This document shows positions 18,908 to 30,159 of a stretch of DNA of 64,000 bases, piece by piece (position 1 is the stretch's first letter; the number at the start of each line of letters is the position of its first letter). The stretch lies in NCBI GenBank assembly GCA_964533825.1, contig CAZHMU010000009.1, positions 1,168 through 65,167 on the forward strand, written 5' to 3'. The notes under the pieces are model-generated. The model made no database searches. It saw nothing but the letters and a program-made list of their open reading frames with translations, and was not told where the DNA came from. The position numbers and the translations under genes are program-made. Origin of the DNA: an uncultured Oscillospiraceae bacterium. Lineage in GTDB: Bacteria; Bacillota; Clostridia; Christensenellales; CAG-314.

Positions 18908-19212
18908 TTACTTAACACTCGTAAGAGCAAACTTTGTTTTTCCGCAGAGAAAATAGTTTGCTTTGGATAACAAAGTGTGCTAATTTCACACGATGTATAT
19001 ATAATATAAAATATTATAAAAAAGTTCATTTTTTATAGGGGAGTTTTTTTGTCATTGTCGAAATTGTTATTGGAAAAGGAAAAATGCAACTTTTTTGAGT
19101 AATTTTGCCTACTTTTTGGGCAAATTTCCCCAATTTTGTGGTTTGTCCCTTTTTGCAAAGGGCAGGCCGATTTTTCTTTTACAAAGGATTTGAAACTACA
19201 ACAGGAGGAAAT

Positions 19213-20982
19213 ATGGCTGATTACAAAGCATTTATACAGCAGGTGAAACAGGCTAACGATATTGTCGACGTTATCGGCTCATATATCGAACTGCGACAAC
19301 GTGGCGCAAACTTTTTGGCGCGATGTCCTTTCCACGGTGAAAAGACCCCCAGTTTCAACGTCAACCGTAATATGCAAATTTTCAAGTGCTTTGGTTGTGG
19401 CGAAAGTGGCGACGTTATCACCTTTGTGGAAAAGTTCGAGTCCTGTTCCACGTGGGAAGCGGTGGAGATTTTGGCAAAGCGTGCCAATATACCCATGCCG
19501 GAAACGCGTGAGCAACGCGAAGACAGACAGTTTGGCGAGCGCAAAAAGCAACGCGAACTGCACTTGGAAATTTGTCGAGAAACGGCCGTATTCTACTTCA
19601 AGGCCTACCGCTCGGACAAAGGCAAGCACGCTCGTGACTACTTTGAAAGTCGCGGATTTACCCCTGATACAGCCAAAAAGTTTGGCATTGGCTACTCGCC
19701 AGACAGCTTTTCCTTGCCAAAGCACCTGCTTTCTTTGGGTTTTAGCGAAGATGAGTGTATCAAAGCAGGCGTAATCCAACGCACGTCCAAAGGTAACGTC
19801 ATCGATGCGCTTTCTCGCAGGTTGATTGTACCCATCTTCAATATGCAAGGCAAGGTTATCGCCTTTGGTGGACGAGCTCTTGACGAGCAAAATCTCAACT
19901 ACGGCAAGTACAAAAACACAGGCGACACACCTTTGTTTACCAAAAAGAACAACCTGTTTGCGCTTAACATTGCCAAGGAGCAAAAGCAACTGTCCGCTTT
20001 GAAACACCTTGTCGTTGTGGAAGGCTACATGGACGTAATTGCTATGTATCAAGCCGGCTTTACAACAACCGTTGCCAGTATGGGCACAAGCTTGACAGTG
20101 GAGCAAGCACGTTGGTTGTCAAGGCTTGCGGACACTGTGTATATCTGCTACGATGGCGACGCTGCCGGTCAAAAGGCAACTGTACGTGGTCTGGACATCT
20201 TGGACCAAGCCGGACTGGAAGTCAAAGTTATGTCAGTGCCAAACAACCAAGACCCGGACGAGTACATCAAGGCGTACGGCCGTGATGCTTTCGAAAAACT
20301 CATCGAGCAAGCAATGCCATTGCCTGACTACAAAATTCAAATTTTGGACAAGACCTTTGATATTGCCAGCTCCGACCCAGTAGTGCGCAACAACGCATTA
20401 CCCAAGTACGTCAAGGGCGCAATTTCAATGCTCAAACAACTGGACGAAACTCGTCAACGCCAGTATATATCGGTACTTTCCGCAAAAACTGGCTACTCGC
20501 AAGACTACTTTTTGCGCAAGATTGCCGAAAAAGGCAACACGCAAAAGGACGAGCCAGCCCCAACGGACTCGGCAACAAGCCCCGAAACGAAGGCAAAGTT
20601 CTTTGTGGCAAGTTGTTTGTTGCACGGCCAAGACTACGCAGTCTTGGAGGAAAAACCACGTTGCGACACGCTGTTTTTGTCCAACTTGTACAACTACCTG
20701 TTCGATTGCAAACTCAAAGGGGAAAGCCCCACAGTGGATATGCTCTACACGGTTTGTCCCAACGGCACCCCAGATGAGTACGCTCAAATCATCAACGTTG
20801 ATTTCTCCCCCAAACGCTACGCTAAAAACGCTCAATACTTTGCCGAGTGCAAGCACGTAATAGTGGTGGAAGAACTACAACGACAAAAAAATCAAATTTT
20901 GGCACAAATGAAAAAGGACCCAACAAATACGGAACTTTTGCACAAACTGGCGGAAATTTCCGCAAAAATTACTTCAAAGTAA
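19213..20982 (+). CDS. dnaG: DNA primase
   Basis: RBS AGGAGGAAAT before the ATG. Zinc-ribbon [11 protein letters not shown]...[27 protein letters not shown]...[11 protein letters not shown]. Confidence 0.95.
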
Positions 20983-20996
20983 AAAGGAAGGGAAAA

Positions 20997-22046
20997 ATGG
21001 AACTCACACAAGATTTTTTGAAAGGTATTCTTGAAGAAATCAAAGGCACAGGCGCAACAAAAATCACTTTTGACGAGCTGGAAACCAAGTTGGAAAAACT
21101 TGATCTCACAGCTGACCAAAACGCCGAAATCTACAAGTTTTTGGAAACAAACGGAATTGCAGTTACCGACACTTTGGACAAGGACAACTCCGCTTTGTAC
21201 AAGTCCATTGGCGACGTATCTGTGGATGACCCTGTAAAAATGTATCTTCGCGACATCGGTAAAGTGCCCCTTTTGACCAGCGAAGAAGAAATCGAAATTG
21301 CCAAACTCATCTTGGAAGGTGACGAAGAGGCAAAACGCAAGCTTTGCGAAACAAACCTTCGTTTGGTTGTAAGCATTGCAAAGCGCTACATCGGCCGTGG
21401 CATGCTGTTTTTGGACTTGATCCAAGAAGGTAACGTAGGCTTGATGAAAGCGGTAGAAAAGTTCGACTACACCAAGGGTTTCAAATTCTCTACATACGCA
21501 ACTTGGTGGATTCGTCAAGCAATCACACGTGCCATTGCCGACCAAGCGCGCACAATTCGTATTCCTGTACATATGGTGGAAACAATCAACCGCCAAGTTC
21601 GCGCACAACGTGCACTGTTGCAAGAGCTGGGACGTGAACCCACTCCAGAAGAAATTGCCGAGTATATGGGTATCACCCCCGAAAAGGTAATTGAAATTCA
21701 AAAGATTGCCCAAGACCCAGTTTCACTGGAAACCCCCATTGGCGAAGAGGAGGACTCTCACCTTGTGGACTTTATTGAAGATACAAAAACCATCGCTCCT
21801 GGCGATATGGCAGCGCAATCTATGCTCCACGAACAACTTGTTGCAACCTTGCACAAGCTTACCCCTCGTGAAGAAAAGGTCATTCGCTTGCGTTATGGTC
21901 TTGATGACGGCAAACAACGCACTTTGGAAGAAGTAGGCAAAGTGTTCAACGTTACTCGTGAACGTATCCGCCAAATCGAAGCAAAAGCGCTCCGCAAGCT
22001 CCGCAACCCAACTCGTAGCAAAAAGTTGCGTGACTACCTTGACTAA
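20997..22046 (+). CDS. sigA: Primary RNA polymerase sigma factor
   Basis: RBS AAAGGAAGGGAAAA before the ATG. Regions 2-4 present ([34 protein letters not shown]). dnaG-sigA synteny. Confidence 0.95.
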
Positions 22047-22047
22047 G

Positions 22048-22692
22048 ATGACACTCCGATTGGACACAATAGTGCAAGCAATACCAAACGTTATAACCCT
22101 TTGTGACGTTGGTTGTGACCACGGCTACATTGGTCTTGGTGCGTACAGCCTTGGTAAAGCGCAAAAGGTCATCTTTGTGGACGTATCGGCACCCAGCCTT
22201 GCCAAAGCAATGCAAAACTGTACAAATGCACAAATGAGCAACTGTCAGTTCGTGCATCAAGACGGTTTGCAAAATATACTTTGCGACTGCGCAGTGATTG
22301 CTGGCATGGGTGGCTTGGAAACAATCTCCATCTTGCAAAATGCAAAGGCATTGCCACAGCATTTGGTGCTTCAACCAATGCGAAACCAAGTAGACGTTCG
22401 CAAATATCTGCTTGCCAACAACTACAAAATTACCCTTGATGTCAAGTTTTGTGACATCAAGTACTACGACCTAATTTGTGCCGAACAAAGTTGCGACAAG
22501 ATGTCCTTGGACGACTTGCAACTGTACTTTGGCATGACAAATCTTGTAAACCCAACGCAAGACTTTGTTCAATTTCTTTTGGATGAAAAACAAAAGTACA
22601 CTCAAATACTAACTCAATGCAGGGATCAAGACGTTGCAGACAAATTGTCACGCGTGTGTCTTGCCCTTGAACATATAGGAGGCCAACAATGA
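22048..22692 (+). CDS. trmK: tRNA (adenine22-N1)-methyltransferase TrmK-like
   Basis: Motif LCDVGCDHGYIG, AGMGG, and position after sigA as in Bacillus yqfN. Confidence 0.7.
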   Translation: MTLRLDTIVQAIPNVITLCDVGCDHGYIGLGAYSLGKAQKVIFVDVSAPSLAKAMQNCTNAQMSNCQFVHQDGLQNILCDCAVIAGMGGLETISILQNAKALPQHLVLQPMRNQVDVRKYLLANNYKITLDVKFCDIKYYDLICAEQSCDKMSLDDLQLYFGMTNLVNPTQDFVQFLLDEKQKYTQILTQCRDQDVADKLSRVCLALEHIGGQQ

Positions 22693-23399
22693 TTCAACAA
22701 CAAATGTTAGAGTATCAAAAAATCGACGGCGAACTCAACCGTATCGAACGTGATTTGCGCAAGAGCGAAGCGTACCAAAATCTCAAAAAGTACAAGGCAC
22801 TTCGCGCCGAGTACGAAGATACTTTGAACAAGCTTGATGCAAAAGCCAGCGACCTCAAAAATCGCCTTGCTCAAGCTAAGCAATCCATTGCAAAAATCAA
22901 CGCTGTAATTGACGAACACACCAACGAAATGACTCACGTGGAAAGCAGTGACGAACTCAAGTACATGAGCAAAAAGTTGGACGAACAACTCAAATTGCTT
23001 GCTCAAGTAGAGGCAGACATCCGCGAAATTCTCCGCGAAGGTGAGGAAATTGCCAAAAAGTTTGAGGAAATCAACGCAAAACTTCCAGCTATCGCCAAGG
23101 CTTACAAAACTGCAAGCGAAGAGTTCGAAAACCAAAAGGAACAAATCAAGCCACGCGTAAAGGAACTCCGCGACAAGCTTGACGCTTTGAAACCACAACT
23201 GGACAAAAATTTGTTTGCAACTTACGAGCGTATTTCCGCAGGCAAGGTGTTCCCAGTGTTTGTACCACTTCACGACGGAAATCGCTGTGGTGGTTGCCGT
23301 ATGGATATGCCGCTTGGCGTGGTTGAAACGGAAATGCAAAAGCACGGCGGCATCATGCGTTGCGAACACTGCGGTCGCATTATCTACAAGGCTGACTAA
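22689..23399 (+). CDS. Coiled-coil zinc-ribbon protein (COG1579 / DUF164-like)
   Basis: Long coiled coil followed by CGGC...CEHCGRI zinc ribbon. Confidence 0.7.
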   Translation: MIQQQMLEYQKIDGELNRIERDLRKSEAYQNLKKYKALRAEYEDTLNKLDAKASDLKNRLAQAKQSIAKINAVIDEHTNEMTHVESSDELKYMSKKLDEQLKLLAQVEADIREILREGEEIAKKFEEINAKLPAIAKAYKTASEEFENQKEQIKPRVKELRDKLDALKPQLDKNLFATYERISAGKVFPVFVPLHDGNRCGGCRMDMPLGVVETEMQKHGGIMRCEHCGRIIYKAD

Positions 23400-23440
23400 T
23401 TTTGTGCAATAAGATTTTAACAAAACACAAATAACAAGAA

Positions 23441-23471
23441 ATACTAACGATCGCCTCGTTAGTATTTTTTA
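23441..23471 (+). terminator. Rho-independent terminator; left edge of AT-rich islet 1
   Basis: Stem ATACTAACG/CGTTAGTAT followed by T6. Confidence 0.8.
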
Positions 23472-23493
23472 TTAGAAAAAAATCAAAAAAATC

Positions 23494-23543
23494 TTGCCAA
23501 TTTGGCAATTTTTATTGACAGATTTATTTTGATGTGTTATTAT
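23494..23543 (+). promoter_or_regulatory. Perfect 7-1-7 palindrome (operator candidate) plus consensus promoter for the XRE gene
   Basis: TTGCCAA-T-TTGGCAA at 23494-23508. TTGACA (23515-23520), 17-nt spacer, TATTAT (23538-23543). Confidence 0.6.
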
Positions 23544-23575
23544 AGTATTGCCGAACAGGCCAAGGGGAAAAGCAG

Positions 23576-23884
23576 ATGAAAACATTAGGAGAAAGAATAA
23601 CCATATTATTAAACGAAAAACACATATTGCAAAAAGATCTTGCCATTATGATTGGTGTGACTGAATCTGCATTGTCAAGATATATTAACAACGAACGAGA
23701 ACCCAAAATAGAAGTTTTGGCAAATCTTGCAACTGCGTTGGAAACAACCGTTGACTACTTGACTACTGGTAAAAAACCAGAAACAGATTTTGATGAAATC
23801 TATCGTTTGGTTGCAAGAAGCTCCTACAGCTTGACAGAATCACAAAAAATGCAAATTATTGAGGCGGTAATGCGTAACAAATGA
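23576..23884 (+). CDS. XRE-family helix-turn-helix transcriptional regulator
   Basis: RBS AAGGGGAAAAGCAG before the ATG. HTH_3 pattern LGERITILLNEKHILQKDLAIMIGVTESALSRYINNEREP. Confidence 0.9.
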   Translation: MKTLGERITILLNEKHILQKDLAIMIGVTESALSRYINNEREPKIEVLANLATALETTVDYLTTGKKPETDFDEIYRLVARSSYSLTESQKMQIIEAVMRNK

Positions 23885-24447
23885 TAGATACAGCTCGTGT
23901 AAACCCATCAAAAATACCATCGTGGATGTATGATGAAATCGAAAGAAAAGTGGTTGACTTATACAAAGAACAAGGAATAACGGAAGTACCAATAAACCCT
24001 TTCGAAATTATCAAAAAAAGAGGATACATATTGGTTCCATTTTCAAAGCTTCAAAATACTTTTTTATCTGGAAAGGATGGCGATAAACACGATGCCTTAT
24101 CCTTTTTCGTTCCAGAGCTTCAAAGATATGTAATAGCTTATAACGATGAAAAGCCATTACCACGTCTTCGTTTTACACTTATGCATGAAATTGCTCACAT
24201 TGATTTGGGTCACAGGGGGGAAAGTGACTTGGCAAGACGTATGGCAGACTATTACGCAGGGTATGCTTTGGCGCCATCCCCATTGATAGGCCTTTTTACA
24301 AGCGGAAGCAAAACGGAAATTCAAACTAAATTTGAGGTATCCAATGAGTGTGCTGAAGTTTCTCAAAATAGGTACTACAAATGGTCCGTCTATGGCGGTA
24401 ATAATTACAAGGATTATGAACTTGTTTTACTAAATTTATTTAATTAA
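23881..24447 (+). CDS. ImmA/IrrE-family zinc metallopeptidase
   Basis: ATGA overlap with the XRE gene. HEXXH motif in TLMHEIAHIDLGH. Classic XRE+ImmA pairing. Confidence 0.85.
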   Translation: MIDTARVNPSKIPSWMYDEIERKVVDLYKEQGITEVPINPFEIIKKRGYILVPFSKLQNTFLSGKDGDKHDALSFFVPELQRYVIAYNDEKPLPRLRFTLMHEIAHIDLGHRGESDLARRMADYYAGYALAPSPLIGLFTSGSKTEIQTKFEVSNECAEVSQNRYYKWSVYGGNNYKDYELVLLNLFN

Positions 24448-24518
24448 ATAACAAAATTCTTTAACAAAAAAGAAAAGCACCTAACAGTTGCTACCAACAA
24501 CTGTTAAGTGCCTATCAG

Positions 24519-24537
24519 GAAATGTGTTACACATTTC
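24519..24537. promoter_or_regulatory. Inverted repeat upstream of the DUF4417 gene
   Basis: GAAATGTG-TTA-CACATTTC. It follows a second hairpin GCACCTAACAGTTG...CAACTGTTAAGTGC at about 24477-24511. Confidence 0.35.
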
Positions 24538-24633
24538 ACAGGACACAAATAGTATAACACTTCCTGTCTTTTTTGTCAAATCTATTTTTGACGCCAACCA
24601 AAGGTTGAGATTACATTTTACAGGAGGTGTTAT

Positions 24634-25302
24634 ATGGACACTCTTTTTACCATACCCAAAATGGCACAAAAAGACGTTTTTAACTCGTTTTTAGTTACAA
24701 ACGCGACGTATGACGGTGAAGACGAAATTCCCGTTATCAAAACAAGTAACCTTATTCCCGAAAAGGTTATTTCCTTTTCAAAAGCCAAAAGTAAACAAGA
24801 CTACAATGCTTGGGTTCATTTTTACCAGTGTGATAGTGAAATTGAGCGCTTTTGGAGAAATCCACAGAAGTATTTGCCAATGCTAAAAAGGCACAAAGGA
24901 GTTATTTCTCCAGATTATAGTTTGTACTATGATATGCCTTTATGTATGCAAAAGTACAATACATATCGTGGTAAAGCACTTGCGCATTGGCTAATAGAAA
25001 ATGGTGTAGAAGTAATACCCAACGTTCGGTGGGGAGATGAGCGTACCTTTGATACTGCCTGTCTTGGTGTTGAACCTAACAAGACCATTGCCGTAGGTAC
25101 CCATGGTTGTATCAAGACAGTCGAAGGAAAAAGGATGTTTATTGCTGGCTTTGACTATGTAGTAAACAAACTTACTCCCCAAAGGATAGTAGTTTACGGA
25201 CGTATGCCGGACAAAATCTTTTGCTTGGCAAGGATGTATGGCGTAGAACTAATTCCATTTGAAAGCGAATTTGGCTTAACCCACAAAAAGGGGGTGAGCT
25301 GA
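24634..25302 (+). CDS. DUF4417-domain protein
   Basis: RBS CAGGAGGTGTTAT before the ATG. 222 aa. Pattern WVHFYQCDSEIERFW...ISPDYSLYYDMP...NTYRGKALAHWL..GVEVIPNVRWGDERTF is remembered as DUF4417. Confidence 0.65.
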   Translation: MDTLFTIPKMAQKDVFNSFLVTNATYDGEDEIPVIKTSNLIPEKVISFSKAKSKQDYNAWVHFYQCDSEIERFWRNPQKYLPMLKRHKGVISPDYSLYYDMPLCMQKYNTYRGKALAHWLIENGVEVIPNVRWGDERTFDTACLGVEPNKTIAVGTHGCIKTVEGKRMFIAGFDYVVNKLTPQRIVVYGRMPDKIFCLARMYGVELIPFESEFGLTHKKGVS

Positions 25303-25332
25303 TATGGGAGCTGGATATCATGGCGGATTTGG
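25230..25332 (+). repeat. Direct repeat copy A (DUF4417 3' end + stop + first 10 codons of the next ORF)
   Basis: Aligns with 26304-26405 with about 7 differences by eye, including one 1-nt indel in an A5G5/A5G4 tract. Confidence 0.9.
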
Positions 25333-25735
25333 TAATACTGCTGGAGAAAATAAACATAAAAATAATGTTGACACTATTAAAAAGAGTAAAGGTAAATATT
25401 TAGCAAATTTTGGAACTATAGATAGCAATGCAAAAGCAATGAGTTCTATATATCCCATGAAAAATGGATATTTTGGGGTAAAGGGAAAAAACCATAGAGT
25501 TATATATAGTAAAGATCAATATAAAACGGCTTCTGATTTTTATTTGAGAATTTCTCGTGGTGGCAGCGAAAAATCTTTGCCTAATAATAAGGGTAAAATT
25601 AGTTATTTGGAAGATGGCACTAAAATTGTTTACAGACCTAAAACCTCTACTCCAGATAGTCCAGCTGTTGAAATAACTATATATTATCCCAATAGTGTTC
25701 GCGGTCAAAAAATACATTTCTTAAAGGAGGATTAG
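25304..25735 (+). CDS. Variable cassette 1, small basic protein (putative effector/toxin), shared MGAGYHGGFG N-terminus
   Basis: The ATG lies 1 nt after the DUF4417 stop. 143 aa, Lys-rich. The C-terminal region (..IVYRPKTSTPDSPAVEITIYYPNSVRGQKIHF) matches no family I can name. Confidence 0.45.
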   Translation: MGAGYHGGFGNTAGENKHKNNVDTIKKSKGKYLANFGTIDSNAKAMSSIYPMKNGYFGVKGKNHRVIYSKDQYKTASDFYLRISRGGSEKSLPNNKGKISYLEDGTKIVYRPKTSTPDSPAVEITIYYPNSVRGQKIHFLKED

Positions 25736-25737
25736 AG

Positions 25738-26304
25738 GTGATAGAAGCTAAATTTTCAAATGAAATGCTACAGTATTTGGGAAAATTAAATAACTCGTGG
25801 TTTATTAAATACATCACTGATGATGAAACAAGTGGCAATTCAACATATTGCAAGTTAGGGATTGATTCCGATAATGTTTGTTTGGATATATTTAATGAAG
25901 AAACAAATGTTGATTGGTTTGTATCTGGAAATAAGATTCAACAAGAAGACATCTCAGTTTTTTCTTGTGCAATCAGGAATGATGGCGAAAAATTTCAACC
26001 ATATTTGGGCGAATCCCAAATTATTGCTATTGATGTTAATGAAAAAATAGGTAAAGTAGAAATTGTTTCCGATTTGATTGATGTAAATAATGGCGAATAT
26101 ACAATTGACTACGATATGGCAATAATTATAGAAACCGAAAAGCACAAATATATATTCTCTCGCGGATGGTATTTTGATGAAGAAATATATATCAATGTTG
26201 ATAAGAGCATAGATGAAATATATCCAATTCGAGAAGTTCAGGAATCGTGGAGTAATGATGGAGAATTTGTCGTCAAAGTAAGCAGAGTAGTAAAGACAAT
26301 CTAA
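25738..26304 (+). CDS. Variable cassette 1 partner, acidic protein (putative immunity/antidote)
   Basis: GTG start 2 nt after the upstream stop, with AAGGAGG upstream. 188 aa, Asp/Glu-rich, no recognised family. Confidence 0.4.
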   Translation: MIEAKFSNEMLQYLGKLNNSWFIKYITDDETSGNSTYCKLGIDSDNVCLDIFNEETNVDWFVSGNKIQQEDISVFSCAIRNDGEKFQPYLGESQIIAIDVNEKIGKVEIVSDLIDVNNGEYTIDYDMAIIIETEKHKYIFSRGWYFDEEIYINVDKSIDEIYPIREVQESWSNDGEFVVKVSRVVKTI

Positions 26305-26405
26305 AGGATGTATGGCATAGAACTAATTCCGTTTGAAAGCGAATTTGGCTTGACCCACAAAAAGGGGTGAGTTGATATGGGGGCTGGATATCATGGTGGA
26401 TTTGG
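26304..26405 (+). repeat. Direct repeat copy B (orphan DUF4417 3' fragment + start of the cassette 2 ORF)
   Basis: It would encode ..RMYGIELIPFESEFGLTHKKG* against ..RMYGVELIPFESEFGLTHKKGVS* in the intact gene. The substitutions are mostly synonymous. Confidence 0.9.
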
Positions 26406-26799
26406 CAAGACATATGGGGAAAAAAGCAGGCTGAATAATATCAAAAAACCCATTACAAGAGTTGGCGATGTTAGGTATAGCTCAAGAAAGACTGAAGGGT
26501 ACTTGTTGAACATAAATCATCCATATGGTAGTTCTAAGGCAAAATTTATGAGAGATGTTTTGGGCTATTCTGTAGATGATTCAAAACTATTTCACAAAAA
26601 TGTTGTAAAATCGATAATTAACGAGGAACCATACAAGACTATTGAAACGATGTATGGACTAAAACACACATACCATACAGTATTAATTGGTAAAAATGGT
26701 GATAAAGTTACTGCAAATGTGGTAGTGGTAGTGCAGAAAGATAAAAAAAGGGTTACATATAAGATTGTAACTGTATATCCTAACAAAAAGGGGGATTAG
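26377..26799 (+). CDS. Variable cassette 2, DUF6883-like protein with the shared MGAGYHGGFG N-terminus
   Basis: 140 aa. Pattern TEGYLLNINHPYGSSKAKFMRDVLGY...YG.KH...L.G.NG.......VVVQKD....YKIVTVYP is remembered as DUF6883. Confidence 0.5.
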   Translation: MGAGYHGGFGKTYGEKSRLNNIKKPITRVGDVRYSSRKTEGYLLNINHPYGSSKAKFMRDVLGYSVDDSKLFHKNVVKSIINEEPYKTIETMYGLKHTYHTVLIGKNGDKVTANVVVVVQKDKKRVTYKIVTVYPNKKGD

Positions 26800-26801
26800 G
26801 T

Positions 26802-26993
26802 ATGAAAGAATTAGACGTAGTAATGTTAACAGAAAACTTTGAGAATATTCTTGCAGGAACAAAAGGCACTGTCGTTTGCGAATACGATAGAACCGCTTTT
26901 GAAGTTGAGTTCTTCGATAATGATGGGGATACTATTGATGTTGTTACAATTCCAGCTAATTTACTGGTTTTAGTTGAAGAATATAAAATGTAA
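26802..26993 (+). CDS. Variable cassette 2 partner, DUF4926-like small protein
   Basis: RBS AAAGGGGGATTAGGT before the ATG. 63 aa. Pattern D.V.L......L..G..GTVV.......FEVEF.D..G.T..V..IP...L matches my memory of DUF4926. Confidence 0.5.
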   Translation: MKELDVVMLTENFENILAGTKGTVVCEYDRTAFEVEFFDNDGDTIDVVTIPANLLVLVEEYKM

Positions 26994-27064
26994 TTGACGG
27001 TAAATTGTCAAAGTGAGTATAACATTCTTTGTAATTTTCATTAAATAAATTAATGCACAACAAC

Positions 27065-27094
27065 AAAAGGACGAGAAAATTTTCTCGTCCTTTT
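27065..27094. terminator. Bidirectional terminator; right edge of islet 1 and terminator of upp
   Basis: Perfect 30-nt palindrome AAAAGGACGAGAAAA/TTTTCTCGTCCTTTT. Confidence 0.85.
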
Positions 27095-27149
27095 GTCTTT
27101 AGCATCAATTCAGTTATTTGCAAATCGGTCAATATTTTTGATACAAACC

Positions 27150-27779
27150 CTATTTTGTACCAAACAATCTGTCGCCAGCATCGCCAAGACCGGGCAAAAT
27201 GTAGCTTGCTTCGTTGAGCTGTCTGTCTTGTGTTGCGCAGTAGATTTGTACGTCAGGGTGAGCTTCGTGCAAAGCTTTGATTCCCTCTGGTGCAGCAATG
27301 ATGTGCATGCATTTGATGTTCTTTACGCCTTTTGCCTTCAAAAGGTCAACTGCAGCAATGGCGCTACCGCCAGTTGCAAGCATTGGGTCAAGTACGATGC
27401 AAATCTTTTCTTCAATGTGAAGTGGCAACTTGCAGTAGTACTCTTGTGGTTGGCAAGTTTCTTCGTCACGGTACATACCAATGTGACCAACCTTTGCAGT
27501 GGGGAACAATGTGTGTACGCCGTTTACCATACCAAGACCAGCGCGCAAAATGGGGATGATTGCAACGGAGTTGTCGATGATAACTTGTTGTGGTGTTACT
27601 TCCAATGGTGTTTCCACCATGATTTCTTCAGTCGGGATATCTTTGAAAGCTTCGTATGTCAACAGTGTAGCAATTTCTTCAACAAGTTCTCTAAATTGCT
27701 TTGTGTTTGTGTTTTTGTCGCGAAGCAATGCAACTTTGTGTGACATGAGTGGATGGTTGATGATTGTAACGTTTTCCAT
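27150..27779 (-). CDS. upp: Uracil phosphoribosyltransferase
   Basis: RBS AAAGGAGAG before the internal ATG ([11 protein letters not shown]). PRPP motif [11 protein letters not shown]. 209 aa. The track start at 27920 was rejected. Confidence 0.95.
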
Positions 27780-28278: not shown

Positions 28279-28833
28279 TTAAATTTTCTTAAACACAAAC
28301 AGGTATTCGTGGGCGAGTAGCAAAAAGTTGTATTTTACGCTATTTGTTTTCCAAAAACCTGTTGCTTTGCAATTGTGTTGTTCTTTTATGATTATTTCTT
28401 TTGCTTTGAATCCTGCAAGTTCAAAAATGCGCATTGTTTCAAATGCAAGAGGTTGTACCATGCCATTTTTACGAGTATCGCCCATCAATACAGCACAATA
28501 CTTGCCCTTTTTTAAAACTCTATAGCTTTCCTCGGCAACCTTGCCAATTTCCATCAAAAATGGCTTGATGGATAGTTGTGACAAGTCGCCATCGATACCA
28601 TCGCTGTATTGAATAATATCTGCATAGGGTGGATGTGTGCAAATGAGGTCAACGCTTTCGTCAGGCAAGTCCAATTTGCGAGCATCGCCAAGACGGATGG
28701 AAATATCCACGTTTGAGTCAAACTCAAAATCGCATTTTCTTTGAGAAAGTTCTACAGCGTTAGGATTGATGTCAATGCCAATAAAGTTTCTGCCTGTTAG
28801 CTTTGCTTCAACTGCGGTTGTGCCACCGCCCAC
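28279..28833 (-). CDS. SAM-dependent DNA (N6-A/N4-C) methyltransferase, apparently 5'-truncated
   Basis: Motif I (ILDQF)VGGGTTAVEA..GRNFIGIDINP sits at the very N-terminus and motif IV is CTHPPY. In-frame TAA and TAG lie 6-7 codons upstream of the GTG. No RBS is visible. Related enzymes, as I recall them, carry about 40-60 residues before motif I. Confidence 0.6.
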   Translation of the reverse strand: MGGGTTAVEAKLTGRNFIGIDINPNAVELSQRKCDFEFDSNVDISIRLGDARKLDLPDESVDLICTHPPYADIIQYSDGIDGDLSQLSIKPFLMEIGKVAEESYRVLKKGKYCAVLMGDTRKNGMVQPLAFETMRIFELAGFKAKEIIIKEQHNCKATGFWKTNSVKYNFLLLAHEYLFVFKKI

Positions 28834-28863
28834 AAATTGGTCTAAAATAATCTATTATGATAT

Positions 28864-29193
28864 TTAACTAATCATCTGTTTTAGTTGTTTTAATATTAGA
28901 AAGATGTGATTGCTACATTGGTTTTCTTCGTAATGTTTTTCTTCTTCTGTCCACAAATATTCTACAATCTTTTTAATGTTATTCTTTAGAGACTCATCCA
29001 ATAGTTGCTCTCCTATAATGCAGTTTTCATTAAAGCCGTTTTTTGTTATCCATTGATTATTTTTTAATAGTGAATTAAGCGCATCACCCATATTATGCCC
29101 AGATGCTTGACCTAAAACCTGAAGGTTTTCTACTGGTTGATTAGTTGGACTTTCGGTATAGCCATCTGGTGTGTAAAATATATATCGTTTCAT
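28864..29193 (-). CDS. Hypothetical 109-aa protein in the DpnI-like operon
   Basis: TAATG overlap with the upstream endonuclease gene. No recognised motif. Confidence 0.45.
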   Translation of the reverse strand: MKRYIFYTPDGYTESPTNQPVENLQVLGQASGHNMGDALNSLLKNNQWITKNGFNENCIIGEQLLDESLKNNIKKIVEYLWTEEEKHYEENQCSNHIFLILKQLKQMIS

Positions 29194-29960
29194 TACTTTT
29201 TTCTATAAACCCCGTTTCCTAAGAATTCTATATATCCCTTATCTCGAAGTATTTGAAGCTGTTGGCGTATTTTTGCTTCAACATTTTTATTTTGCGGATG
29301 CAATGTTGATAAAAAATGAGCAAACTTGTATACATCTCCTAATGTGAATAAATCTTGTGGGATTTGATTGATGCAGTTTAGCACATCAATTAACCAACTT
29401 CTTTTATCAATGCTTTCAATATATAATGAATTGCTTCTATTTACGCATCGAACAACATCCAGCGCGCTATTTACTAAGCCGTCCTTTACTATGTCAATTC
29501 GACCTTGTAGCGGTATCTTGTCAATTAAAATATTACACCCTATCCAACCTGCACGGCGAGCAGACTGGGATAAAGGGGCACGAGCTTCAATAACCGATGG
29601 TGTAAAAAAGTGTCTGGGGATTATTATTAAATCCTTTACACGATATTCTATTTTTGAATAGCTCATAAACAAAAAATCAGGGTTTTGATTGCTTGTTATT
29701 CTTGAAATCATAGTTGAGTATGCGCCATCATTAATTTTGTTTCTTATTGGGCCAACTTTGCTTTTTAATTCAAATTGATTATTGCAAGATGGGCAATAAA
29801 AATCAGCTACTGGTCGATTGTTTTCAAAATGCAAAATATGGGTATTTCCACATCTTGGGCAGTACAAATTGTCTAACACCCATTGTTCAGTTAAAACACG
29901 TGCCTTTTGTGTATTGCTATGATATTGATTTGTAATATTAGTATTAAAATCCAAGTTCAT
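29193..29960 (-). CDS. DpnI-family methyl-directed type IIM restriction endonuclease
   Basis: 255 aa. Blocks QKARVLTEQWV..YCPRCG...HFENNRPVADFYCPSC..QFELKS, NDGAYSTM, ARRAGWIGCNI and C-terminal KIRQQLQILRDKGYIEF match my memory of S. pneumoniae DpnI end to end. Confidence 0.8.
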   Translation of the reverse strand: MNLDFNTNITNQYHSNTQKARVLTEQWVLDNLYCPRCGNTHILHFENNRPVADFYCPSCNNQFELKSKVGPIRNKINDGAYSTMISRITSNQNPDFLFMSYSKIEYRVKDLIIIPRHFFTPSVIEARAPLSQSARRAGWIGCNILIDKIPLQGRIDIVKDGLVNSALDVVRCVNRSNSLYIESIDKRSWLIDVLNCINQIPQDLFTLGDVYKFAHFLSTLHPQNKNVEAKIRQQLQILRDKGYIEFLGNGVYRKK

Positions 29961-29961
29961 A

Positions 29962-30159
29962 TTATTGCAGTTTGTCCTTATTTTCTTTTTTTCGTTTATC
30001 TATGGGCTTTTCGGCTGTGCTTGGAATAATCCACATATTGCCAACCATCATTGCACCTTTGATGCGTTCTTCTGAACACAGGATAGCAACTCTTCTTTGA
30101 GAAATATTCCATTTTTGAGCAGCTTCTTTTGCTGACATATAACTAAGCATAGCAATCAC
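29962..30159 (-). CDS. Small helix-turn-helix DNA-binding protein (possible controller)
   Basis: 65 aa. SAKEAAQKWNISQRRVAILCSEERIKGAMMVGNMWIIP is typical of the excisionase/MerR-like HTH_17 type. First gene of the operon. Confidence 0.65.
   Translation of the reverse strand: MIAMLSYMSAKEAAQKWNISQRRVAILCSEERIKGAMMVGNMWIIPSTAEKPIDKRKKENKDKLQ

Follow-up and report, generated by a model that had tools for sequence, protein, structure and literature searches.

An islet combining DUF4417 with exchangeable, tagged toxin-immunity pairs in an uncultured Oscillospiraceae bacterium: a probable phage-derived polymorphic toxin module

Background

What kind of system is encoded by a low-GC (guanine plus cytosine) islet in which a pair of regulators, a DUF4417 gene and two pairs of small genes follow one another, and does anything beyond neighbourhood join these genes? 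The question is raised by contig CAZHMU010000009.1 of an uncultured Oscillospiraceae bacterium, of which we analysed a stretch of 64,000 nucleotides (nt), here called the window, whose coordinates number all pieces of the islet. The map of its open reading frames (ORFs) places seven plus-strand ORFs, the islet, between a COG1579-like gene and upp, as a preliminary description of this DNA had stated. The reading that we consider probable, with some reserve, is that of a polymorphic toxin-immunity module derived from phages and complete in itself, under an XRE/ImmA switch, stably resident in the chromosome and not a prophage. That description also knew of no described system joining DUF4417 with swappable effector cassettes, and our literature search likewise found no published link between DUF4417 and toxins: the four papers found to mention the family do not connect it with them. 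The genes on which the argument rests are the following (aa, amino acids):

23576-23884, plus strand: XRE-family helix-turn-helix (HTH) repressor, 102 aa (Pfam HTH_3, 2.4e-11, 43.9 bits, cut-off 23)
23881-24447, plus strand: ImmA/IrrE-type M78 zinc peptidase, 188 aa (Peptidase_M78, 2.8e-8, 34 bits, cut-off 22; HEIAH motif)
24634-25302, plus strand: DUF4417 protein, 222 aa, constant partner of the toxins (Pfam PF14386, 1.2e-58)
25304-25735, plus strand: putative toxin 1, 143 aa, tag MGAGYHGGFGNTAG followed by an unnamed toxin domain; no Pfam family
25738-26304, plus strand: presumed immunity protein 1, 188 aa, GTG start 2 nt past the toxin 1 stop; role assigned from position
26377-26799, plus strand: putative toxin 2, 140 aa, same tag followed by DUF6883 (BECR-Tox3, predicted RNase; Pfam 5.4e-13)
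26802-26993, plus strand: putative immunity protein 2, 63 aa, DUF4926 (Pfam 4.1e-16)

Related loci in Clostridia

The answer rests in the first place on a survey of DUF4417 in contigs drawn from one genome per species, which gave 468 confirmed matches; the best 80 of these 468 loci were examined, and almost all of the 80 come from metagenome-assembled genomes (MAGs) of gut or rumen Clostridia. Genes downstream were counted in the 72 of the 80 loci that have at least 450 bp 3' of DUF4417, genes upstream in the 70 that have room there. An ORF starting with MGxGxxGG[FY]G lies 0-4 nt past the DUF4417 stop in 55 of the 72 loci; 14 further loci have looser Gly-rich starts (e.g. MGAGRSGHFxGTxGG, MGGGAGGNFG) and in the remaining three the ORF starts with MG and a Gly-rich segment, which brings the tagged loci to 72 of 72. 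The consensus of the tag is about 14 residues long, MGAG[YFI]HGGFGxTxG, and a distant variant (protein P0174, MGSQSGGGY...) also stands directly behind a DUF4417 gene. In all 72 loci DUF4417 is an ORF separate from the toxin, and the toxins (113-222 aa) carry the tag only.

Behind this tag the downstream protein varies strongly: median pairwise identity is 59% for DUF4417 and 79% for the tag, compared with 20% for the toxin body, and even at a DUF4417 identity of 70% or more the toxins of two loci share 22%. Of 85 toxins, 75 have a partner ORF behind them. Upstream of DUF4417 an XRE and an ImmA gene are present in 59 of the 70 loci, and ImmA is always paired with XRE in the related loci. The preliminary description had asked whether the gene behind DUF4417 is hypervariable, begins like MGAGYHGGFG and is followed by a small partner, and whether XRE/ImmA pairs co-occur; these counts answer all four points in the affirmative. 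The aligned loci thus show a constant part, consisting of XRE, M78, a predicted small RNA, DUF4417 and the tag, and a variable part, consisting of the putative toxin and its immunity gene.

The module as a whole is found in changing surroundings. In L001 (labels of this form denote individual loci) it lies between alcohol dehydrogenase and VanW genes, in L012 beside tRNA-modification and transporter genes, and in L005, L006 and L008 within regions resembling integrative and conjugative elements (ICEs), with ArdA and serine recombinases. No neighbour beyond the module is conserved in the loci surveyed, and no phage structural gene was seen beside the modules in the loci with gene calls.

The regulator pair is itself replaced in some loci. 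A fused XRE-M78 protein stands in its place in L075; a protein of about 360-385 aa with a Fic motif, HPF(S/M)DGNGR(V/I)GR, recognised by eye, replaces XRE and ImmA in four loci (L044 4667-5740, L049 4596-5738, L078 1351-2439 and L070 26-1183), and a P-loop ATPase, its motif likewise read by eye, does so in L062 (3995-5104). These replacements suggest that the input side of the module is exchangeable too. Several MAGs have two DUF4417 modules on separate contigs (L015/L016, L019/L021, L044/L056, L050/L084), the toxins being different in some cases and identical in others. Such multiplicity within a genome is typical of polymorphic toxin loci.

Nature of the toxins and their partners

The second pair of the window is assigned most clearly: toxin 2 matches DUF6883 (49.6 bits, cut-off 27) and its partner, 2 nt away, matches DUF4926 (58.6 bits, cut-off 29.1). 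DUF6883 has been described as a BECR ribonuclease, often fused to Phage_Mu_F, with DUF4926 as its downstream partner (bioRxiv 10.64898/2026.08.28.747851), and Ntox50 as a BECR toxin linked to type VII and type VI secretion systems and to MuF (Zhang et al. 2012, PMC3482391). Among 64 tagged proteins of the survey Pfam recognises DUF6883 in 11, Ntox50 in eight, PBECR1 in three, SprT-like in two and LHH in one, and among 50 partners DUF4926 in six and SUKH/SMI1-KNR4 types in three, besides zinc ribbons. The families DUF6883, Ntox50, PBECR1 and LHH on the one side and the DUF4926 and SUKH partners on the other support the earlier suggestion that the small ORFs and their partners are effector/immunity modules.

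Both toxins of the window start with MGAGYHGGFG. PHROGs, PADLOC and NCBIfam gave no match for either toxin or either partner, and Pfam none for toxin 1 and its partner. The AlphaFold2 model of toxin 1, of moderate overall quality (predicted local distance difference test, pLDDT, 68), has an alpha/beta core behind 36 disordered residues (pLDDT below 50), and the tag is accordingly predicted to be a flexible N-terminal peptide; with a model of this pLDDT no solved-structure relative of toxin 1 was found in the PDB. The hidden Markov model and structure searches proposed in the preliminary description have therefore given a family for DUF4417, none for toxin 1 and partner 1, and no PDB relative for DUF4417 or toxin 1.

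Toxin 1 has homologues of its own. Twelve proteins were recovered, each in the order XRE, M78, DUF4417, toxin and 188-aa partner, and the partner of 187-188 aa accompanies toxin 1 homologues in unrelated genomic contexts as well. A profile of the toxin 1 domain collects 500 cluster representatives at E<=1e-3, among them many small proteins with other Gly-rich N-termini, the longer protein P0141, and P0139, in which the domain is the C-terminal part fused to a MuF-like region with a PPFHPNCDC motif.

We also considered a fusion of DUF4417 and toxin by frameshifting at the junction run AAAAAGGGGG, and rejected it: in the window the -1 and +1 frames meet stops or lead into the wrong frame, and across loci the toxin start is offset by 0 or 2 nt, so that the frame relation is not conserved. 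The run itself reads AAAAAGGGGG in the intact DUF4417 gene (25286-25295) and AAAAAGGGG in the remnant of this gene before toxin 2 (26359-26367); the difference of one G moves the stop codon and may reflect decay or a slippage-prone tract.

Recombination and orphan cassettes

How the variable part is exchanged can be read from a repeat within the islet:

25230-25350, plus strand: homology block, copy 1, comprising the last 24 DUF4417 codons, the stop and the first 16 toxin 1 codons (tag)
26304-26423, plus strand: homology block, copy 2, before cassette 2
26308-26370, plus strand: remnant of the DUF4417 3' end, 20 codons, MYGIELIPFESEFGLTHKKG*, as read from the sequence

The two copies form a direct repeat of about 120 bp, with 95% and 85% identity in two blocks and one indel. 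This repeat and the DUF4417 remnant lead us to regard cassette 2 as a pair displaced by recombination, that is, as a displaced 'orphan' cassette. The preliminary description had seen two tandem cassettes; the two toxin-partner pairs are indeed there, but they are not equal, the second being an orphan. Similar orphan arrays are found in L005, L010, L017 and L092; in L005, L010 and L017 the extra cassettes stand behind DUF4417 fragments of 55-142 aa, and L005 has three consecutive cassettes of which the second and the third are each preceded by such a fragment.

The history of the site is seen in L013, a locus of a sister species, which is collinear with window positions 18996-25362 at 82.6% nucleotide identity, over dnaG, sigA, trmK, the COG1579-like gene, XRE, ImmA, DUF4417 and about 20 toxin codons. 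Past 25362 it encodes a different toxin. The islet of the sister species occupies the same site and its divergence equals that of the housekeeping flanks. This collinearity implies that the islet is an old resident of the site, not a recent arrival, and that the toxin was replaced at the tag boundary. Conversely, the pair that forms cassette 2 in the window is the primary cassette, directly 3' of DUF4417, in L024 and L025. Taken together, the compared loci show that homologous recombination across the DUF4417 3' end and the tag replaces one pair by another, and that the displaced pair is kept downstream.

Regulation

The regulatory features of the islet are the following:

23494-23508: perfect palindrome TTGCCAATTTGGCAA just 5' of the XRE -35 box, candidate autoregulatory operator
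23515-23543, plus strand: sigma-70 promoter of XRE-ImmA, TTGACA-17-TATTAT with TG extension, 11/12 consensus matches
24466-24544, minus strand: predicted small RNA of about 80 nt with two hairpins, the second an intrinsic terminator; putative start site
24551-24579, minus strand: predicted small-RNA promoter, TTGACA-17-TGnTATACT, 11/12 matches
24588-24617, plus strand: predicted promoter of the DUF4417-toxin-immunity operon, TTGACG-18-TACATT, 9/12 matches
24595-24607: palindrome CAACCAAAGGTTG in the spacer of the DUF4417 promoter, candidate operator

The palindrome and near-consensus promoter, the XRE gene and the ImmA gene, whose start overlaps the XRE stop by 4 nt, are all present as first described. 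The palindrome TTGCCAATTTGGCAA is found at the identical position in L013 and in near-identical versions in L026, L027 and L014. The label 'CapH/CapP-like' for the two regulators holds in part. There is weak profile similarity to the PADLOC models capH (XRE, 5.7e-10) and capP (ImmA, 4.1e-7), but the same proteins also match RmrA (4e-8 and 9e-5, respectively), and neither DUF4417 nor the two toxins nor the two partners has a PADLOC match that would indicate a known defence system downstream of XRE/ImmA. In PHROGs the two proteins match a transcriptional regulator (XRE, 5e-18) and a metallo-protease (ImmA).

Between ImmA and DUF4417 lies a spacer of 186 bp, a conserved regulatory unit containing a small-RNA gene (24466-24579, minus strand) that is convergent with XRE-ImmA and divergent from DUF4417. 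Its terminator has a stem at 24513-24475 and a T-run to about 24466. Conservation, covariation, folding and duplex formation of the small RNA were tested in 37 diverse loci. The RNA is kept in these loci, with compensatory changes in 12 of 16 terminator pairs, and in 37 of 37 the fold of the minus strand exceeds that of its reverse complement in stability (-28.7 vs -20.0 kcal/mol, p = 1e-7); this difference is a sign of G-U pairs on the minus strand, which is therefore probably the transcribed strand of the spacer RNA. Between L024 and the window the small-RNA segment is 90% identical, compared with 76% for DUF4417, and is the best-conserved DNA of the locus. A search of the spacer RNA against Rfam gave no relevant family match.

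In the small-RNA promoter of the 37 loci the TTGA of the -35 box is invariant or nearly so, mostly as TTGACA, and the extended -10 box is conserved. The DUF4417 promoter stands back to back with it, and its palindrome CAACCAAAGGTTG is kept at the same position in many loci, while a second class of loci has a different, GC-rich palindrome there. In some loci loosely similar AACC...GGTT palindromes occur at the XRE and DUF4417 promoters. The preliminary description had presented the genes as one unit; their order stands, but not a single simple operon, since DUF4417 appears to have its own promoter and the convergent small RNA separates ImmA from DUF4417.

Two roles for the small RNA were tried and rejected on the same loci. 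As a trans-acting antisense RNA against the DUF4417-toxin mRNA it forms duplexes no better than shuffled RNA, at inconsistent sites; as the RNA antitoxin of a type I or type III toxin-antitoxin system it fails likewise, with duplex energies equal to those of shuffled controls and an inconsistent position. A third copy of the arm of the first hairpin, AGGAAGTGT, is found in the spacer of the small-RNA promoter (about 24559-24567); by eye this copy changes jointly with the hairpin between loci, and it could be an operator half-site.

DUF4417 and its phage relatives

The DUF4417 protein of the window covers positions 2-174 of the 183 of PF14386 (198.1 bits, cut-off 28.9) and belongs to a subfamily with 409 close homologues. 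Its AlphaFold2 model (pLDDT 89, predicted template modelling score 0.85) consists of alternating beta-alpha repeats. The alignment has 38 invariant columns, D94, S96, R132, D135, R137, G158, C159 and K161 being among the invariant residues, and H157 is nearly invariant. In the model the conserved residues lie mostly directly after predicted beta-strands, which suggests the active site of an enzyme. PDB relatives were found neither by sequence nor by profile, and the fold search gave only weak, TIM-barrel-like matches (template modelling (TM) score 0.3-0.4). In a viral structure library the best fold match apart from DUF4417 itself is to phage proteins annotated as queuine tRNA-ribosyltransferase (E = 7e-4, TM 0.5), a weak likeness that we take as a lead, not as an assignment. 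A role as lysozyme or holin was considered and rejected, the model having no PDB similarity to either.

DUF4417 is widespread in phages: 492 phage records have a match, 385 of them from Mycobacterium phages. The phage proteins are often fused to a domain of the ParB-CTPase fold, in forms of 350-370 aa. In Roseburia phage Jekyll and in Streptococcus phage Javan91 the terminase genes begin a short way 3' of DUF4417. In Che12, DUF4417 opens the genome at its left end as gene 1, is annotated 'nuclease' and is overlapped by gene 2 by 4 nt (L116, 381-1900); among the Mycobacterium phages gene 2 was inspected in Che12 only. The ORF 3' of phage DUF4417 commonly begins with a Gly-rich segment:

Che12, gp2: ORF after phage DUF4417, starts VTGGGGSGSGGGSGGGSS; annotated peptidase, HELGH motif
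L103: ORF after DUF4417, starts MGRGSSKAGGSGSGG
L105: ORF after DUF4417, starts MGRGKSKGG
L106: ORF after DUF4417, starts MGRGKSKGSGS; terminase-like ORFs follow (by eye)
L107: ORF after DUF4417, starts MGRGRSGLSGGGGG
L096: ORF after DUF4417, starts MGGGYSPSRGGWDGGGKGG; HEMGH motif

In Jekyll (L108, 5570-5842) the protein after DUF4417 has 91 aa and begins VVVNLQFFGGRGGSSGFGKLSG, with VVVNLQFF followed by GGRGGSSGFGKLSG. NLQFF is a Prp-type cleavage motif and stands directly before a copy of the tag, GxGxxxGFGxxxG; the tag-like segment GRGGSSGFGKLSG that follows it aligns with GAGYHGGFGNTAG at six positions. The gene of the terminase large subunit lies 600 bp 3' of this tagged protein. Prp cleavage motifs of the NLQFF type are known from ribosomal protein L27 and from the capsid and scaffold proteins of 80alpha (PMC9405229). 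Of 2.9 million viral contigs a single one has the strict tag, and this near-absence indicates that the tagged DUF4417 subfamily is essentially cellular. We read the phage relatives as the origin of the module. The preliminary description would have given up its proposal had DUF4417 and the small ORFs belonged to a known phage structural or replication module; this is touched in part, as packaging genes are near neighbours of phage DUF4417 and MuF phage toxins have the same toxin domains, but the locus is not thereby a prophage.

Genomic setting

The islet is framed by two hairpins:

23432-23474: left boundary, hairpin and T-run, terminator of the dnaG-sigA-trmK-COG1579 operon (inverted repeat with 19-nt arms), from which the GC content falls
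27063-27096: right boundary, palindrome of 17+17 nt, 100% complementary, bidirectional terminator common to the islet and the convergent upp

Pfam identifies the flanking genes as COG1579-like (CT398_CC and Zn_ribbon_9) and upp (UPRTase), which bears out the earlier placement of the islet between the terminator of a housekeeping operon and that of upp. The abrupt shift in composition is equally evident, with a GC content of 0.30-0.40 across 23400-27200 compared with 0.44-0.50 in the flanks, and all seven ORFs have the coordinates and the plus-strand orientation first given for them. No tRNA was found between 15 and 35 kb of the window, no integrase in the islet by ORF map and Pfam, no direct repeats flanking the islet by repeat search, and no phage structural gene in the ORF map of the window. 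These results agree with the preliminary description, which had reported no integrase, tRNA or flanking direct repeats and had argued against a prophage. A prophage was rejected on these grounds and on the near-absence of the strict tag from viral contigs.

Just past upp there is another low-GC islet, on the minus strand (28279-30159). It encodes a restriction enzyme of the DpnI family (Dam-replacing; PF06044, 7e-75, with DpnI_C), a 108-aa ORF without family, a small HTH_17 protein and a 183-aa ORF resembling N6_N4 DNA methylases, which is short and may be truncated. The toxin islet thus adjoins a restriction module.

Discussion

In ImmR/ImmA of ICEBs1 as well as in IrrE/DdrO and CapH/CapP, an M78 peptidase cleaves an XRE repressor on a stress or invader signal. 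If the islet works in the same way, XRE would keep the DUF4417 operon off, probably via the palindrome in the promoter spacer, until a stress or invader signal causes the ImmA-type peptidase to cleave XRE, as in ImmR/ImmA and CapH/CapP, and the toxin operon would then be derepressed. The convergent small RNA may, to judge from its position, block read-through from XRE-ImmA into the toxin operon or tune the switch. The tag may, on the strength of their co-occurrence, couple the toxin to DUF4417, which could be its carrier, its loader into particles or an enzyme that activates it, unless it acts as an independent co-effector. The immunity protein would protect the producer, and an orphan pair could still supply immunity. 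We infer both the inducibility of the islet and a role in defence. The overlap of the toxin repertoire with MuF toxins, the site of phage DUF4417 beside packaging genes, the Gly-rich starts of the proteins behind it and the Prp-type motif would speak for a route through virions or DNA packaging; on the other hand, the module islets are without particle genes.

The closest parallel to the arrangement of the genes is found in polymorphic toxin systems such as Rhs, CdiA, LXG and MafB (Zhang et al. 2012, PMC3482391). The likeness lies in hypervariable toxins of the Ntox50, LHH and BECR type, in a presumed immunity gene directly 3' (SUKH, DUF4926), in replacement of the toxin by recombination at a conserved upstream segment, and in displaced downstream cassettes that keep a piece of the constant region. 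The islet differs in having DUF4417, a protein of its own, as constant region, with a tag of about 14 residues being all that the toxin keeps, so that toxin and trafficking domain are not joined in one polypeptide and the defining feature of such systems is lacking; the window has no type V, VI or VII secretion system, signal peptide, or repeat or pre-toxin scaffold, and the islet has its own XRE/M78 switch and small RNA. With the MuF toxins of phage heads (Zhang et al. 2012; Jamet et al. 2017, PMC5576092) the islet shares Ntox50, DUF6883/BECR-Tox3, metallopeptidases and the toxin 1 domain, phage relatives beside packaging genes, and DUF4926 as the immunity partner of DUF6883. However, no protein of the window matches MuF, portal, terminase and capsid genes are absent, the toxin is not covalently joined to its phage-derived partner, and the module is chromosomal and vertically retained.

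On the regulatory side, ImmR/ImmA of ICEBs1 and CapH/CapP of the cyclic-oligonucleotide-based antiphage signalling system (CBASS) likewise have a small XRE gene and an overlapping M78 (HEXXH) gene upstream of a presumably harmful operon, but the operon controlled here is neither an excision module nor a known defence system, and regulator and target are co-directional and separated by a convergent small-RNA gene. In RosmerTA, RmrA is an XRE-M78 fusion and RmrT a variable toxin; XRE/M78 beside variable small toxins is common to both systems, and RmrA models match both regulators. In the islet, XRE and M78 are separate genes (the fused form being that of L075), no protein matches RmrT, and there are a dedicated presumed immunity protein, DUF4417 and arrayed cassettes. 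The internal proteins of phage T4, IPI-III and Alt, have capsid-targeting sequences. These and the Prp-processed head proteins of 80alpha (PMC9405229) resemble the islet in a short N-terminal peptide on small effectors, with the NLQFF motif of Jekyll as a further likeness; in contrast, the chromosomal islets have no capsid genes, and a place of the tagged proteins in virions would be hypothetical.

Several points weigh against our reading of the islet as an inducible, phage-derived polymorphic toxin module. Toxicity, immunity, XRE cleavage and induction are all inferred from sequence. Within loci the XRE and DUF4417 promoters share no common word or palindrome that would serve as a joint operator, and in some loci the regulator is replaced by the Fic-motif protein or the ATPase. 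No secretion or delivery genes were seen with the module in the surveyed loci or the window, though a distant or shared apparatus is possible, and no signal peptide was recognisable by eye in the toxins or DUF4417. The co-inheritance of tag and DUF4417 could reflect linkage alone, because both lie inside the block of recombination homology. DUF4417 looks, in its model, like an enzyme, so that a pure carrier role may be wrong. Finally, in a variant (L113 2230-3492, also L114) XRE, an ImmA-like gene, the small-RNA spacer and the CAACCAAAGGTTG palindrome are kept, a 49-aa ORF replaces DUF4417, and the toxin, of the toxin 1 family, has no Gly-rich tag. This variant shows that a putative regulator-toxin-immunity core can exist without DUF4417, which fits an intracellular role as well as delivery.

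Other explanations have to be weighed. An intracellular defence of the abortive-infection or toxin-antitoxin type, akin to RosmerTA or to systems under CapH/CapP, is possible, if rather less than probable: phage infection or DNA damage would act through ImmA, XRE would be cleaved, and a toxin burst would stop the infected cell without any export, DUF4417 being a sensor or co-effector on nucleic acid and the 'immunity' protein an antitoxin that sets a threshold. That XRE and M78 match capH, capP and RmrA and are fused in L075, that no secretion genes lie nearby and that in the variant a toxin-immunity pair stands under the same regulatory region with DUF4417 absent would fit such a role; with the DpnI islet 1.2 kb off the region resembles a defence neighbourhood, and DUF4417 is fused to ParB and occupies the position of a DNA methylase domain in phage proteins, which suggests action on DNA. 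However, arrays of displaced cassettes, SUKH and DUF4926 are hallmarks of toxins against other cells (Zhang 2012, PMC3482391), toxin and immunity gene are co-transcribed and translationally coupled, so that induction alone should not be toxic, and no downstream protein has a PADLOC match. Polymorphism and retained orphan immunity, which fit competition between strains, would also agree with a colicin-like bacteriocin, induced by damage in some cells, freed by lysis through a resident prophage or with DUF4417 as release factor, and then entering neighbouring cells, with kin protected by their immunity genes, the orphan one included. The logic of the operon is alike (toxin and immunity gene under a stress-responsive repressor, with one gene more), but the small toxins have no receptor-binding or translocation domains, and DUF4417 has neither PDB similarity to lysozymes or holins nor a recognisable membrane segment or signal peptide and lies in phages near packaging genes, not in the lysis cassette, all of which makes this explanation improbable.

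Alternatively, nothing at all may join the genes, and the islet would be a decayed fragment of a prophage or ICE, with XRE/ImmA as the relic of a lysogeny switch, DUF4417 as another relic and the pairs as addiction modules. The DUF4417, XRE and ImmA families are all common in phages, the GC content is low, and ArdA and serine recombinases mark the ICE-like surroundings of some related loci. A decayed fragment would hardly explain that the five-gene order, the spacing, the regulatory spacer and the stop-start junction recur across Clostridial families and contexts, that DUF4417 keeps a median identity of 59% with 38 invariant columns, that the islet has been at its site since the split of the sister species, and that the strict tag is found in a single one of 2.9 million viral contigs; we regard this last explanation as very unlikely.

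Within the reading that we prefer, a chromosomal polymorphic toxin module derived from phages, the part played by DUF4417 can be taken one step further, though only as a speculation that we ourselves rate as unlikely. DUF4417 and the tag would be a new, non-covalent trafficking mode for polymorphic toxins inherited from phages, in which DUF4417 recognises the tag and either brings the effector to DNA or to phage-type particles or serves as its activator at that place. The islets would then arm particles of helper phages or others with exchangeable toxins.

Conclusions

Our study provides a first functional context for DUF4417, a family present in hundreds of sequenced phages and in at least several hundred species of gut Clostridia. 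It would add to the polymorphic toxins an architecture in which the constant part, which guides recombination, stands alone as a protein and no more than a tag of 14 residues is left on the toxin, together with a compact regulatory circuit that comprises an XRE/M78 switch, promoters arranged back to back and a small RNA of convergent orientation. For gut anaerobes, in which warfare between strains is poorly characterised, an unnamed toxin domain and an unnamed immunity family, at least one of each, are added. Were the tag a signal for loading or recognition, effector delivery could be studied or engineered with it as a short, portable handle. Should DUF4417 indeed be the non-covalent carrier of tagged toxins, its pairing with the tag in hundreds of mycobacteriophages and Firmicute phages (gp1-gp2, as in Che12) would represent a general mode of delivering effectors with phage DNA.

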